Shown piece by piece: positions 2,075-17,877 of a stretch of 32,000 nucleotides of DNA. Under the pieces are notes generated by a model. That model did no database searches. It worked only from the letters and a program-made list of their open reading frames with translations, and was not told the origin of the DNA. The position numbers were made by a program, and so were the translations under genes. Source of the stretch: Candidatus Brocadia sp. (GTDB lineage Bacteria > Planctomycetota > Brocadiia > Brocadiales > Brocadiaceae); the NCBI GenBank assembly GCA_021650915.1, contig CP091279.1, forward strand, positions 1,710,001 to 1,742,000. Reading direction: 5' to 3'. Every line of letters starts with the position of its first letter. Position 1 is the first letter of the stretch.

Positions 2075-3085
2075 CTATTTGCTTACCTTGATTCTGTATG
2101 AACCAGTACCACCAGCGCTATTGTAATGCCGCACCTGAACATAGTAAGTGCCCGTCGTAAGGTCCGTGACAATTTTCGCGTTCCGATCCGTGCCACTATC
2201 ATCATCCTCGGTAATAAGCTTCGTTTGACTGTCAGGACCGTAGAGCGACATCACAATATCCGTTGGACCTTCCGTCTCAATCGTATAGCGACCAGCAGTC
2301 TTCGCAGTGAACTTAAAGAGGTCTTGCTCTCCAGATCGGCCAATTTCGGCCTCCGTGGCTTTTGCCTCGATAACGGGGAGTTCCATAGCCCCAGCACCCT
2401 GAAACGGATAATTTATCGGGTCGCCAATAAACTTCTTATCGGTTTCCGATAGTACCTCATTAGGCTCCGATTGGAAGCCATCCAGTGTCCACGTTACTGG
2501 AATGGCGTAAAGCATTACCGACTTTTTATCCAGGGAAGTTCCATTTATCTGTTCCCGATCATACGTCTTAAACATATTATGATCAATTGTCTCCGGATCC
2601 CAATTGTTTGGCGGGCCCGAAAGATCCCGAATTACGTTGGGCTTGTTCCATTTAATACCCCCCAATGGATTCTGATGTTCGTGTATCAGGCCAATGGCGT
2701 GTCCAAATTCGTGGAGGACGACACCCTCGTCCTGCCAACCCAGATTCATCGTTGCCTGGCCAAGGGGAATATCCTTACAATCCGTACCAATATACGACCA
2801 TGCACCATCTGAATCAACAAACGAAATACGGATTTCAGCATCTGCTGCGTTGTTAAAGTCGAATTTCAGATTGGCGTGGTTGCTCCACTTTGGGGCGAAT
2901 TGTTTAACAATGTTGTGCTTCCCCGAATCACCACCGATAAAGCGCACCCGAAGAGTTGACCCGTTTGGCCACTTCTTTGCCTTCAACACCGCCATCCTTG
3001 CAGCGATGGACATGCTCGGCTGAGCAAGGCGACGAATGTCTCTTGGCAAAATCCTGTCATAGCACACCTTGAGATAGTTAGACAT
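2075..3085 (-). CDS. Astacin-like (M12A-type) zinc metalloprotease with C-terminal PPC (pre-peptidase C-terminal) domain; no signal peptide seen
   Basis: Extended zinc motif HEFGHAIGLIHEH (HExxHxxGxxHE) and a Met-turn-like SVMLY. C-terminal ~90 aa fit the PPC pattern (DLFKFTAKTAGRYTIET...MSLYGPD...GTYYVQVRHYN...GSYRIKV). I prefer the ATG at 3085 (GGAAAGGAG 7 nt upstream) over the track's TTG at 3103. N-terminus MSNYLKVCYDRILPRD is not signal-like. Confidence 0.85.
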   Translation of the reverse strand: MSNYLKVCYDRILPRDIRRLAQPSMSIAARMAVLKAKKWPNGSTLRVRFIGGDSGKHNIVKQFAPKWSNHANLKFDFNNAADAEIRISFVDSDGAWSYIGTDCKDIPLGQATMNLGWQDEGVVLHEFGHAIGLIHEHQNPLGGIKWNKPNVIRDLSGPPNNWDPETIDHNMFKTYDREQINGTSLDKKSVMLYAIPVTWTLDGFQSEPNEVLSETDKKFIGDPINYPFQGAGAMELPVIEAKATEAEIGRSGEQDLFKFTAKTAGRYTIETEGPTDIVMSLYGPDSQTKLITEDDDSGTDRNAKIVTDLTTGTYYVQVRHYNSAGGTGSYRIKVSK

Positions 3086-3204
3086 AACTAGGCTCCTTTC
3101 CAAATGACTTCGAGCCGAACCATCGAAGCCGGTTGATAATATTCTTATTCACGTTCGGATGAATGTCTTTTTCTGCATGCAAAATAATTACTATTCTTTA
3201 TTTT

Positions 3205-4179
3205 TTATTCCTTTTTCCTCTCATTATCAGGTCGTATCTTTTTGATGTGTTTTTCAGATACATCGATTGACTGGTTTCCTTCGGCATGCCCTCCCCGTTC
3301 TTTATCCCTTTCAGTAATAGTTTTCACTTTCGATAAAAGATCAGAAGGGGCAACTGTCCCTTTGGTTTCATCATAGAGGTCAAACCATGGCAGGCCATGT
3401 TTTGTGTACGTTTTGGCATCTATAGGGCTTGGCGGCGGTTGAATCCCTGTTATTTCAAAAAACTGTGCACTATTCATACTATGCACTACCACCCGCCCGT
3501 AGTTATTTTGATCCCAGGCATCAATGCCATGCAGGTCGGGATATATCTTTTGTTTCATTACACCCCCGGCGCCAAGCCCCATGGGCTGAGCTGCCATCTG
3601 CCGTTCGGGATGGGCAAACCTGACAGGACCGGTCTCTGGCTCAGGTGGTGGTTTCTCAGGAAATCGACCTGGTTTTGGTTCGAAGACAAAGACCTGCAAC
3701 CCACCATATTTTTCTTCACCAGTAATGGCCGCTTCTATGGTATACCCAAGTCCCAGCGGCATTGCAACAAACTGACGGATCGTACCATGCCCGGTATTTA
3801 TGCCGTCCAGCCATAGCTGATCGGGACAGACAACATAGTCCTGCGGACCGGCATGAAGCCCGTCTGTATATGGTTTACCGGTAATTGCATTCACATCACC
3901 TGCATATATCTTCACCGCATTTGGTTTCCATGCAGCGGCATTGAAACCAAGCCACAGCGCCTCCCGCTGATACATAGGCATAAACACGCCACCTTGTTCC
4001 CGCCACAGGTGGGGGATACAATCCCGGTAATCATCAACCTTAAACAGCGGAAATGCACCGAGACCAGGCGGCAAAGGATAGACCCGCCCATCATCCGGGA
4101 TTCTTAAAGTACGATGGAAAGATATCGAAAAGCGCGGGCCGATCCGTATTCCATACTCATCGATAACAACATCAAGCAT
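3205..4179 (-). CDS. Conserved-looking hypothetical protein (324 aa), no recognised family
   Basis: Long ORF co-oriented in the operon, with GAGAGGA 6 nt upstream of the ATG. Globular-looking composition with a basic C-terminal tail (KKIRPDNERKKE). No signal peptide or TM segment seen. Confidence 0.7.
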   Translation of the reverse strand: MLDVVIDEYGIRIGPRFSISFHRTLRIPDDGRVYPLPPGLGAFPLFKVDDYRDCIPHLWREQGGVFMPMYQREALWLGFNAAAWKPNAVKIYAGDVNAITGKPYTDGLHAGPQDYVVCPDQLWLDGINTGHGTIRQFVAMPLGLGYTIEAAITGEEKYGGLQVFVFEPKPGRFPEKPPPEPETGPVRFAHPERQMAAQPMGLGAGGVMKQKIYPDLHGIDAWDQNNYGRVVVHSMNSAQFFEITGIQPPPSPIDAKTYTKHGLPWFDLYDETKGTVAPSDLLSKVKTITERDKERGGHAEGNQSIDVSEKHIKKIRPDNERKKE

Positions 4180-4296
4180 TGTTCATCCTCTCTCACTGCA
4201 ACCCTACGGCATATGTTCCTTGCCCGGGGAAATTGTTGCCATGAAATTACTTTTTCATTTTCATAATATCCTGTTTTCCGACCAAAGCGCTCTTGT

Positions 4297-16452: not shown

Positions 16453-16454
16453 AA

Positions 16455-16973
16455 TTACACCTCCTTTTGGTTAATGTTCGTATGCTGACTTTTAGCATTG
16501 ACCTTCGTCTCCGCGCCTGAATCCGCCGGAACGCCTTGCTCCTTCCCCCTAAATAAGCGGAGTTTGCGAACCGCCGGAAGCACATATTCAACGAAGGCGC
16601 TTGTGTTCGGGACATACGCACCCGGAACACCTTTTCCATTACATATTTCACACCCCACGTCTTCCCCCCAACAGTACGGACACGCGCCGAGGGCAGAAGC
16701 AAGGGCATCATTTTTTTCCATTAAAACCATATTCTCATGCTTTAGCTGTTTGTATCTGCCAATGATCCTCTTAAGTTTTATTTTCTCTTCTTCGGCAGGT
16801 ATGCGCTTATCCTGCGGAGGGTTTTGATGTTTCATGAATTCCGCAAGCATTTGAAGCCGGGGGTCAGAAATACCCATTTGATTCAGCATGTCTACGATAT
16901 TCATAGAATTTGCCGGTGAATCATTATTTGTACGAGAAGGGCTATGCTCGTTCATTAATCTTTCTCCTGTCAT
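16455..16973 (-). CDS. Hypothetical 172-aa protein (operon gene B): coiled coil followed by a CxxC-x6-CxxCxGxG zinc-knuckle
   Basis: Motif ALGACPYCWGEDVGCEICNGKGVPG is encoded at about 16626-16690. An alternative start is the ATG at 16955 (AGGAGA 7 nt upstream). Co-oriented and tightly coupled to gene C. Confidence 0.7.
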   Translation of the reverse strand: MTGERLMNEHSPSRTNNDSPANSMNIVDMLNQMGISDPRLQMLAEFMKHQNPPQDKRIPAEEEKIKLKRIIGRYKQLKHENMVLMEKNDALASALGACPYCWGEDVGCEICNGKGVPGAYVPNTSAFVEYVLPAVRKLRLFRGKEQGVPADSGAETKVNAKSQHTNINQKEV

Positions 16974-17016
16974 CCATTTAATAGGTAATTACACGGAAAC
17001 TAATTTATTAATACTA

Positions 17017-17877
17017 CTAATAACGACCCCTGTATCTTCTGTATCTCGATCTGGGGTAACGGCGGAATGCGCTTCCATAACGGCGCCGTGAGCGGGGGCG
17101 ATTTTCTAACAAACCGGCTTCCGACAACCACTCTGTAAGAGACTCTCCTTCATCATCATCCGTTTCTGCAGGGTAATCTTCGTGCAGTTGTTCTAGCAAA
17201 ATCTGAGCTCGTTCTTCCGGCACTGCAGGATCGCACAGGAAATTCCCTTGCTTATCTAAAAGGTAGCTGGGGGTTCCCTGGGAATCTTCTCTCGCATTAG
17301 CCTCTGCTGCAGCTTGATTAGCCAGGGTAGACAGCGCATTCATAAATGACCCGAAAGGGGCTGATGCACCCTGCTGGCCTACCGGCACCGTGCCGCGTCC
17401 GGCCTTCCCTAATACCTGACCGAGTATACTTTGGAGGAGTGCAGGATTTTGTAAAAATGACATGAGTTGTGAAACTGCCGGAGAACCCCCGCCGAGAACC
17501 TGCGATAGCTGGCCTCCTATTGGTTTCCCTGGTGCACCTCCTAAGGCTTTACCGGCTAATTTTCCTACCGCGCCGCCGATGGCGCCTCCAACAGGGCCAC
17601 CAAGTGCAGTACCGAGGACTGGAGCGGCTACAGGGAGGACTTTTGAAGCAACTCCTGCAACGCTCTTTCCAATTTTACCCAGTGTGCCCCAAAAACTCTC
17701 AATCTCCTCAGGTGACATCCCCGAAAATACATCCTCCAGCAGGGCATTGATATCTTCGGGATCAAGATCACGGTATTCCGGAGCCAGGACATTACGAATC
17801 GTCTCATAATAAGAGTTGTCAAATCCTTCGTCCATATCTTCCAGCCAGACCTCCGTATAGTCATCACGATCATCCAT
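17017..17877 (-). CDS. Hypothetical ~286-aa protein (operon gene A): acidic N-terminus, long glycine-zipper-like hydrophobic core, acidic segment, extreme Arg/Tyr-rich C-terminal tail
   Basis: I prefer the ATG at 17877 (AAAGGAGGA 4-5 nt upstream) to the track's TTG at 17901. Core: GKSVAGVASKVLPVAAPVLGTALGGPVGGAIGGAVGKLAGKALGG. Tail: RPRSRRRYGSAFRRYPRSRYRRYRGRY. Confidence 0.7.
   Translation of the reverse strand: MDDRDDYTEVWLEDMDEGFDNSYYETIRNVLAPEYRDLDPEDINALLEDVFSGMSPEEIESFWGTLGKIGKSVAGVASKVLPVAAPVLGTALGGPVGGAIGGAVGKLAGKALGGAPGKPIGGQLSQVLGGGSPAVSQLMSFLQNPALLQSILGQVLGKAGRGTVPVGQQGASAPFGSFMNALSTLANQAAAEANAREDSQGTPSYLLDKQGNFLCDPAVPEERAQILLEQLHEDYPAETDDDEGESLTEWLSEAGLLENRPRSRRRYGSAFRRYPRSRYRRYRGRY

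Follow-up and report, generated by a model that had tools for sequence, protein, structure and literature searches.

A candidate Sec-independent lysis or release cassette of signal-less envelope hydrolases in Candidatus Brocadia, preceded by a predicted c-di-GMP-I-type riboswitch

Type 10 secretion is a process by which large proteins devoid of signal peptides leave the cell through the action of a holin and a peptidoglycan (PG) hydrolase, possibly with lysis of a subpopulation (PMC9527704, PMC10847048). Here we describe a gene cassette that can be compared with these systems. It lies in a 32,000-nt stretch (hereafter the window) of the genome of the anammox bacterium Candidatus Brocadia sp. 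(assembly GCA_021650915.1, contig CP091279.1, positions 1,710,001–1,742,000 of the forward strand) and consists of seven co-oriented genes, A to G, which encode four small proteins (A–D), a large S8 protease (subtilase) polyprotein (E), a further small protein (F) and a second large protein with several hydrolase domains (G). Our preferred reading, to which we give a probability of about 0.4, is that A–G represents, in Brocadia, a tightly gated and Sec-independent cassette for lysis of, or release from, the producer cell. The A–B–C–D–S8 cassette is apparently undescribed so far and occurs in at least 11 phyla; no description of it was found in the open-access literature searched.

Like holin/endolysin cassettes and type 10 secretion systems (TcdE, Serratia ChiWXYZ, Yersinia entomophaga Tc), the cassette encodes signal-less PG hydrolases and large proteins beside small, possibly membrane-associated proteins, and its expression appears to be tightly regulated. 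The signal-less PG hydrolase that characterizes a lysis cassette is represented here by M15_3, DUF2272 and PG_binding_1 domains. The differences are that the cassette shows no holin, endolysin-partner or spanin homology (no family of spanins or outer-membrane disruptors was matched in Pfam or PHROG), that it adds a subtilase zymogen, a zinc-ribbon protein and a shared adaptor-like module, and that its hydrolases are fused into polyproteins of 1,000–2,800 aa. It is also present in monoderm bacteria.

Ten open reading frames (ORFs) occupy the minus strand between 17901 and 2075, and the initial annotation read them as a single transcription unit. With the best-supported start codons they amount to nine co-oriented genes, A to I (17877–2075), because gene E is split by a single frameshift. 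The rest of the proposed layout, including its coordinates, holds: each of the nine genes has a Shine–Dalgarno-like site 8–17 nt upstream of its best start codon, the intergenic gaps from A to I measure 61, 2, 35, 55, 20, 65, 117 and 119 nt, and the unit ends 3' of gene I with an intrinsic terminator (1975–2031) made of a hairpin followed by UUAUUUU. The folding energy of this hairpin region (1960–2074) is −34.2 kcal/mol (z −3.6). These and all other window features below are on the minus strand unless otherwise stated.

The distribution of the cassette was examined from protein B, whose zinc-ribbon motif was used as a strict pattern to scan one genome per species. A relative of B is encoded in 138 of 185,579 species genomes, which belong to the Planctomycetota, Thermodesulfobacteriota, Gemmatimonadota, Chloroflexota, Myxococcota, Acidobacteriota, Bacteroidota, Pseudomonadota, Cyanobacteriota, Actinomycetota and Eremiobacterota. 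A full HMMER scan with a B profile returned 1,251 clusters (50% identity) at E ≤ 1e-3, 974 of them at E ≤ 1e-10, all made of small stand-alone proteins. Eighty loci from the 11 phyla, one per species genome, were fetched and searched with hidden Markov models (HMMs) built for this work. The S8 core was detected in 73/80, and A, B, C and S8 occur together in 50/80, invariably in that order; most of the other loci are truncated contigs or belong to a Paracoccus subtype in which the protease is upstream of B. The same gene order is seen in a second Brocadia species, a metagenome-assembled genome of the Thermodesulfobacteriota, Calothrix, Acidobacteriota, Actinomadura, Pontivivens and a megaplasmid of Cupriavidus oxalaticus. 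The initial annotation had suggested a check for conservation of the gene set as a neighbourhood, and such conservation is found, for A–B–C–D–S8 as well as for the hydrolases that carry the shared module.

Across phyla, the S8 proteins share 48–66% identity in their first 600 aa and differ in their C-terminal domains. The same small proteins accompany them in diderm and in monoderm phyla. The distribution is patchy, often in islands or on megaplasmids, and looks like the result of horizontal transfer; the island-like settings comprise insertion sequence (IS) elements, integrases and megaplasmids. In about 25 Paracoccus species (loci L039–L097), a bare S8 protease of 580–700 aa is placed upstream of a B-like gene, and A and C were not detected in these loci by our HMMs. 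In Pontivivens ytuae (L017), a bare S8 protease in the same size range follows five small ORFs; the two arrangements make up an alphaproteobacterial subtype.

Signal peptides were judged by Kyte–Doolittle (KD) hydropathy and inspection. The initial annotation had seen none on E, G, H and I, and indeed the best 19-residue segment in the first 40 residues of these proteins has a KD of at most 1.08, which means that they have no hydrophobic N-terminal segment. The 5'-nucleotidase encoded next to the unit, taken as a positive control, reaches 2.14 and contains the lipobox-like sequence LLICGFLGIC. None of the S8 proteins of the 50 ordered cassettes has a hydrophobic N-terminus either (0/50, highest KD 1.31), and inspection of the window proteins revealed no lipoprotein signal in any cassette gene.

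The proteins encoded by the first four genes are small. A (17017–17877, 286 aa; 74 homologue clusters) has an acidic helical N-domain, a conserved LPVAxxxGTAxGGPxGGAxGG glycine zipper and an α/β central domain; its Arg-rich tail is confined to the Brocadia lineage of the window. In its AlphaFold2 model, the mean pLDDT (predicted local distance difference test) is 70 and the central α/β domain reaches 80–93, and the glycine zipper is disordered and of low confidence. The alignment of B (16455–16955, 166 aa) shows a coiled coil followed by an invariant GACxxCWGxDxxCxxCxGxGxPG zinc-ribbon motif. With its CxxCxGxG spacing, the motif is reminiscent of zinc fingers of the DnaJ type, which is only a lead: neither B nor its relatives match any Pfam model at E ≤ 1, the DnaJ CxxCxGxG model included. 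C (15829–16452, 207 aa) was detected in 52/80 loci, and an alignment from seven loci shows an acidic N-terminus, a basic patch, a coiled coil, an LLPLLL motif and a Gly-rich, weakly hydrophobic C-terminal tail.

PASTA domains are extracytoplasmic PG-binding modules of penicillin-binding proteins and PknB-type kinases. D (15305–15793, 162 aa) is poorly conserved overall. Its constant features are an amphipathic helix at the N-terminus, then a loop rich in K/R and a hydrophobic helix, after which comes a linker rich in Pro and Ala. A gene occupies the D slot in 45/50 ordered cassettes, and the hydrophobic helix has a KD of at least 1.5 in 16/45. The C-terminal domain is variable: it is PASTA in 14/43 (best E 1.5e-35), and Fn3 or coiled coils in others. 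The presence of PASTA in the relatives, together with the positive-inside rule, makes D a predicted single-pass membrane protein, N-in and C-out, which would contact the producer's own wall.

The initial annotation had placed A, B, C, D, F and H outside named families, and database searches agree with it. Neither the window proteins nor their relatives gave a credible family in Pfam, NCBIfam, PHROGs or PADLOC, where the only matches were coiled-coil or low-complexity noise. Nothing significant was found in the PDB for A and B (searched as profiles), H (searched as a single sequence) or G, the best match being a de novo designed protein (E 0.0037). Foldseek returned no match at E < 0.1 for the AlphaFold models of A and H, against the PDB and, for A, viral folds; the model of H is weaker than that of A, and β-rich.

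Gene E (9698–15249) is covered by ORFs 15249–14233 and 14188–9698, which form one subtilase gene, with the Asp and His of the catalytic triad in the first and the Ser in the second. The frameshift is a single base at about 14315, within ccccgggcaaaaaca, in a C/G/A homopolymer context (about 14300–14320). Other assemblies of the same organism contain an intact E of 1850 aa, and the repaired window sequence gives exactly 1850 aa. A sequencing error may account for the frameshift, as may genuine decay of the gene. Some older assemblies of the organism show other truncations of the S8 gene. The repaired protein is composed of a prodomain (about 100 aa ahead of the catalytic Asp), a Csp-like S8 protease, acidic linkers, an unknown domain, the shared module, PG_binding_1 and an α/β hydrolase; Peptidase_S8, in two halves, and PG_binding_1 are recognized by Pfam and NCBIfam. 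The nearest solved relative of the C-terminus is a 'protein-asparaginase' (PDB 9xg1, E 2e-22), and its conserved GHSRG, DGDV and NHN motifs correspond to the α/β-hydrolase triad. In PADLOC-DB v2, the S8 domain matched the generic subtilase and IetS models only, with no system-specific defence match.

In both NCBIfam and the PDB, the S8 domain comes closest to the clostridial germination proteases CspBA, CspC and CspB. In the clostridial Csp–SleC cascade, as in the cassette, a Csp-like S8 protease is paired with signal-less PG_binding_1 wall hydrolases. SleC is a spore-cortex enzyme which has PG_binding_1 beside its hydrolase domain. The cassette could therefore be considered a Csp/SleC-like zymogen cascade outside spore-formers, in which the subtilase would activate wall-remodelling hydrolases for a life-cycle transition, such as aggregation, exit from dormancy or the separation of cells, and the PASTA-bearing D would sense muropeptides. 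Besides the Csp relationship, the position of PG_binding_1 beside a hydrolase, as in the spore-cortex enzyme SleB, the PASTA domains of the D proteins and the location of the Brocadia cassette behind a riboswitch for a second messenger (described below) would fit this explanation. However, the S8 domain scores far under the NCBIfam cutoffs (64 bits with CspBA, cutoff 1250; 44 bits with CspC, cutoff 675), the hosts of the cassette are not spore-formers, and A–D and the shared module have no place in the clostridial cascade. The patchy, horizontal-looking spread (138 of 185,579 species genomes) also speaks against this explanation, payloads with PLD and several hydrolases would be excessive, and the crossing of the membrane by the enzymes would be left unexplained. 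We regard wall remodelling as unlikely.

The shared module, of about 180 aa, is common to E (11672–12202) and to the N-terminal part of G (8641–9180). The E copy matches residues 14–193 of G with 53% identity over 181 aa (E 1e-48), in agreement with the initial annotation, which had noticed the module in both proteins; it is also visible in the DNA as a direct repeat of 72% identity. In other phyla it follows the protease domain of the S8 proteins and, in loci with a second large protein, stands at the head of that protein as well, and a small HMM detected it in the S8 and second hydrolase proteins of 38/80 loci. Its invariant positions are E, F, P, D, R, G and R, with no Cys, Ser or His among them, which makes the module look like an adaptor rather than an enzyme. 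It matches nothing in Pfam, NCBIfam, PHROG or PADLOC, nor, in a profile search, in the PDB. With hhalign, the module showed no relationship to A, C, F or the S8 core, nor did A to C. The possibility that the module mimics the protease prodomain was considered and is unsupported, as the hhalign comparison of the two was likewise negative.

In the effector-associated domain (EAD) logic of conflict systems, a non-catalytic domain is common to a core protein and to separate effectors, which include lysozyme-like enzymes and papain-like PG peptidases (Kaur et al. 2020, PMC7159879). The cassette is similar in that its module is found both in the core protein and in a separately encoded hydrolase. 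It differs in that the module matches no Pfam model searched, and in that there is no nucleoside triphosphatase (NTPase), STAND or vWA–MoxR core.

In gene G (4297–9219, 1640 aa) the module is followed by a VanY/M15_4-like module (about 7828–7923), a CHSGG module, Peptidase_M15_3 (5824–6150, 43 bits), a coiled coil and DUF2272 (4441–4782, 34 bits). The enzyme domains which had been assigned to E, G and I on sight are recovered with Pfam and NCBIfam, except that the second M15 module of G is below threshold (22.4 bits with M15_4, cutoff 25), although its HxxxxxxD and MHFD motifs are visible.

The payload behind the protease differs among genomes. In 31 large proteins, the domains found are PG_binding_1 (8), OmpA (7), Amidase_3 (6), VanY (4), Amidase_2 (3), M23 (3), phage tail lysozyme (2), PLD (2) and M15_4 (2), with single cases of GH25, M15_3, DUF2272 and DUF4056. 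The hydrolase payload thus varies from genome to genome as that of polymorphic toxins does, a likeness that had been suggested from the window alone. The constant head made of S8 and the module, the swapped C-terminal domains, the embedded protease and the pairing of one domain with a small gene are all reminiscent of these toxins.

The small gene in question is F (9285–9677, 130 aa). It is present in 4/80 loci (outside the window, L018, L052, L068 and L089), namely all those in which the S8 protein has an E-type α/β hydrolase at its C-terminus, and it is absent in the other 76. This strict co-occurrence is the pattern of a cognate partner of the C-terminal hydrolase domain of E, and F may be an immunity-like protein, an inhibitor or a chaperone. 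The α/β hydrolase tracked by F is the only payload domain for which action from the cytoplasm seems plausible. By hydropathy, F has no signal peptide.

These features have to be weighed in favour of an interbacterial weapon, namely a polymorphic-toxin system in which A–D would form or recruit a new export route to neighbouring cells and the producer would survive. The conserved head followed by variable C-terminal enzyme domains and the strict pairing of F with one payload domain would be expected of such a system; PLD, M23, tail lysozyme and amidases are typical of the effectors of type VI secretion systems (T6SS) and phage tails; the settings are island-like; and Cupriavidus has an additional divergent pair of A-like and shared-module genes. 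That pair lies on the megaplasmid of Cupriavidus oxalaticus X32 (NZ_CP038636.1, 611–629 kb), which carries a full cassette, at about 618–625 kb, with a group II intron nearby; on the opposite strand, the genes for an A-like protein of only 182 aa and for a protein of 809 aa with the shared module resemble an orphan effector module. Against a weapon, no ATPase, channel, recognized trafficking domain or associated secretion system (of the T2, T5, T6, T7, MuF or PrsW kinds, among others) was found in the inspected proteins and neighbourhoods, the conduit for proteins of 1,600–2,800 aa would have to be very large, and the same small proteins would have to serve in diderm and monoderm phyla. Polymorphic toxins carry a single toxin tip, whereas the cassette has several enzymatic domains per polypeptide and four conserved small genes upstream. 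In the loci inspected in detail, none of the called genes 3' of the PG hydrolases is an immunity candidate, and in particular there is no periplasmic one, so that sister cells would be unprotected; F itself is without a signal peptide. A weapon directed at neighbours seems doubtful to us.

Another explanation is that the polyproteins are cargo for a particle encoded elsewhere, such as an extracellular contractile injection system (eCIS), a tailocin or a phage-like particle, with A–D as loading factors or chaperones. In a relative from the Thermodesulfobacteriota (L010, 12054–20378), the 2774-aa S8 polyprotein contains a Phage_T4_gp19 tail-tube domain (residues 759–832, 29.5 bits, cutoff 28.2), together with Amidase_2 and a PLD phospholipase. 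Phage tail lysozyme is present in 2/31 large proteins, the glycine zipper of A weakly matches tape-measure proteins, and at one locus the H–I pair, which is unrelated to the cassette, lies beside eCIS_core genes. The tape-measure matches (phrog_167, E 1.5e-4; PDB 9ki1, E 0.048) are driven by low complexity and are not significant, and that identification was rejected. The gp19 domain occurs in one relative only, A has no viral fold match, and B relatives are absent from 2.9 million IMG/VR contigs and from 50,697 phage genomes (INPHARED). No secretion ATPase and no phage, T6SS or eCIS structural gene was found among the called genes of the inspected loci; in the window and in the loci inspected in detail, this includes sheath, tube, baseplate and capsid genes, which sets the cassette apart from eCIS, T6SS and tailocin cargo. 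We consider the cargo explanation improbable.

The initial annotation took a terminator-bearing repeat upstream of gene A for the boundary of the unit. The hairpin is real (18030–18125, −32.4 kcal/mol, z −5.2), but it is part of a riboswitch leader and is thus a control element, not a mere boundary. The leader contains, in sense orientation and with 216 nt between its end and the ATG of gene A, a c-di-GMP-I-GGC riboswitch aptamer (18093–18205; RF03167, 62.0 bits for a gathering threshold of 59, E 2.6e-13). The expression platform is an intrinsic terminator (18044–18107) consisting of a hairpin and a U-run. Its 5' arm is built from the aptamer's 3' strand (GCCUUACUGCCGAAG): the arm at 18107–18088 overlaps the aptamer 3' strands at 18111–18093. 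When the whole leader is folded without ligand, the minimum free energy structure contains the terminator and lacks the helices that close the aptamer. Since the two structures share this strand and the terminator forms without ligand, we infer that ligand binding would prevent termination and allow read-through, as in an ON switch. Similarly to c-di-GMP-I (GEMM-I) riboswitches, the leader scores over the Rfam gathering threshold and has a terminator-type platform; the difference is that its best match is the GGC variant family, and ligand binding is predicted from the sequence. To our knowledge, no ligand has been established for this variant class.

A second copy of the riboswitch (23005–23135, 59.3 bits, E 1.6e-12), also with a terminator-type platform, is located in the leader of a gene (21414–22772) identified from its Pfam matches as a sigma-54 response regulator. 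The DNA repeat families (D2–D4) shared by the two leaders are the two riboswitch copies. One signal would thus control both the sigma-54 regulator and the cassette. Two further Brocadia loci, L012 and L018, have this riboswitch in the corresponding place (60.7 bits), and an Rfam search detected it in 0/11 non-Brocadia cassette loci. In the literature searched, no link was found between c-di-GMP-I riboswitches and wall hydrolase operons.

Other lineages have other regulators: a sigma-54 activator is encoded just upstream in 6/44 loci and a BTAD regulator in 3/44, and a small winged-helix (wHTH) gene is present in 4/80 loci. In L010 (8560–8730) and L012 (8130–8390), TAGGACAAATTTGTCCTA-type palindromes, which resemble upstream activating sequences, are followed by a promoter of the sigma-54 type (GG-N10-GC), ahead of the wHTH gene that precedes A. 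In L015, a sigma-54-type promoter is located upstream of A.

According to our preferred reading, lysis or release from the producer, the large envelope hydrolases would be made in the cytoplasm as inactive, signal-less polyproteins, which would obtain access to the producer's own PG on command. Binding of the ligand to the riboswitch would suppress termination and lead to the expression of the cassette. D, the glycine zipper of A and the tail of C would open or mark the cytoplasmic membrane in a holin-like manner, and the zinc-ribbon protein B would take part as a factor for assembly or holding. The subtilase would mature itself and then cut the polyproteins, and the shared module would couple the second hydrolase protein to the subtilase, like effector-associated adaptor domains. 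The outcome would be lysis of the producer, which might serve programmed death, the release of matrix or extracellular DNA in an aggregate with high cyclic di-GMP (c-di-GMP), or a colicin-like release of enzymes. c-di-GMP is a second messenger linked to sessile life (PMC11224092).

Self-lysis or lysis-dependent release is the simplest reading because the enzymes act only outside the membrane and yet are signal-less across the whole family, and because the cassette is self-contained. The absence of secretion and particle genes and of immunity partners for the wall hydrolases, the zymogen nature of the protease and the gated expression point in the same direction, and so do the conserved gene order, the variable payload of PG and lipid hydrolases, and the membrane helix and PASTA ectodomains of the D proteins. 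Several observations nevertheless weigh against it. The membrane lesion by A–D is something that we purely infer, with indirect support from the D helix and the PASTA ectodomains of its relatives: A–D match no holin family in Pfam, PHROG or NCBIfam, the cassette proteins as a whole match no holin, spanin, gasdermin or secretion family, and the segments concerned are weakly hydrophobic (KD 1.4 for the glycine zipper of A, 0.8–0.9 for the helix of the window D, and a median of 1.1 for the tail of C, which is under the typical transmembrane value). The diversification of the payload, combined with the toxin–partner pair formed by the C-terminus of E and F, is a classic signature of weapons against other cells rather than of autolysis, and one relative carries a gp19 tail-tube domain. 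The protease of the Pontivivens/Paracoccus subtype has no recognizable hydrolase domains, which means that wall hydrolysis may not be the core activity. Finally, the window has no sigma-54 promoter directly upstream of A and no wHTH gene, unlike the other Brocadia species, and E is frameshifted; the window copy may therefore be decaying.

The small proteins also allow a different reading, in which A–D, four protein families without known relatives that recur in 11 phyla with diderm and monoderm members, would be a new Sec-independent device for crossing the envelope, controlled by a variant cyclic-dinucleotide riboswitch in anammox bacteria. It would hand protease-processed polyproteins of megadalton scale over the membrane, with the shared module as an address tag. 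We consider this possible, and hold it only tentatively.

The unit of nine genes does not form one system, as the initial annotation had assumed. H (3205–4179, 324 aa) was found in 0/80 cassettes. It has more than 7,000 homologues at 60–74% identity, for example in Nitrosomonas, Chloroflexi, Methylococcaceae, Binatia and cyanobacteria, and its mean column identity is 70% in an alignment of 28 diverse sequences. In four unrelated contexts (L007, L009, L098 and L099), H adjoins an astacin/PPC gene, in either order and without A–G. Judging from these neighbourhoods, H–I is a separate, widespread two-gene module outside the cassette. The pair is probably co-transcribed with A–G here since no terminator precedes it: folding of the window revealed no structure comparable to a terminator in the G–H and H–I gaps. 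At L099, the H–I pair lies beside eCIS_core (DUF4157) and M35 zincin genes.

I (2075–3085, 336 aa) contains Astacin (39.7 bits) and PPC (36.6 bits) domains, both over the Pfam cutoffs. It scores 161 bits with NF050131 (AbsR1/SCO6992), under the cutoff of 650, and is thus a relative of SCO6992/AbsR1 rather than an equivalog. SCO6992/AbsR1 is a signal-less zincin resembling matrix metalloproteases (PMC9705864). The label 'beta-glucuronidase AbsR1', which is based on one study of a fusion to maltose-binding protein (PMC9705864), was not adopted for I.

The unit is flanked by the chromosomal housekeeping genes mnmE, yidC and NAPRTase, and by the sigma-54 response regulator, a broken transposase and a PIN gene. 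The transposase looks like a single gene broken into two neighbouring ORFs, of 196 and 203 aa, beside the PIN-domain gene (18812–20043, minus strand; 20630–21070, plus strand). These genes stand between the cassette and the sigma-54 regulator and may be the mark of a rearrangement that removed the upstream regulatory region. Candidatus Brocadia sp. UTAMX2 has a protein with 100% identity to A of the window.

How very large signal-less proteins leave bacteria is an open problem, to which type 10 secretion is the sole partial answer. The compact syntenic cassette described here recurs from Planctomycetota to Actinomycetota, and its conserved parts, namely A, B, C, the shared module and the D N-terminus, belong to no assigned family. 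As the cassette is present in culturable strains (Paracoccus, Cupriavidus, Dyella, Pseudomonas indica and Nonomuraea; among them Paracoccus zeaxanthinifaciens ATCC 21588, Cupriavidus oxalaticus X32, Dyella monticola and Nonomuraea endophytica DSM 45385), the question is directly testable. The cassette could reveal a new principle of lysis or translocation, expose a protease-controlled hydrolase cascade outside spore-formers, supply modular wall-degrading enzymes and give a physiological output to an orphan variant of c-di-GMP riboswitch, while the H–I pair marks a very large, highly conserved and nameless protein family. If the cassette is a lysis module linked to c-di-GMP, it would have a bearing on the formation and decay of granules in anammox technology.

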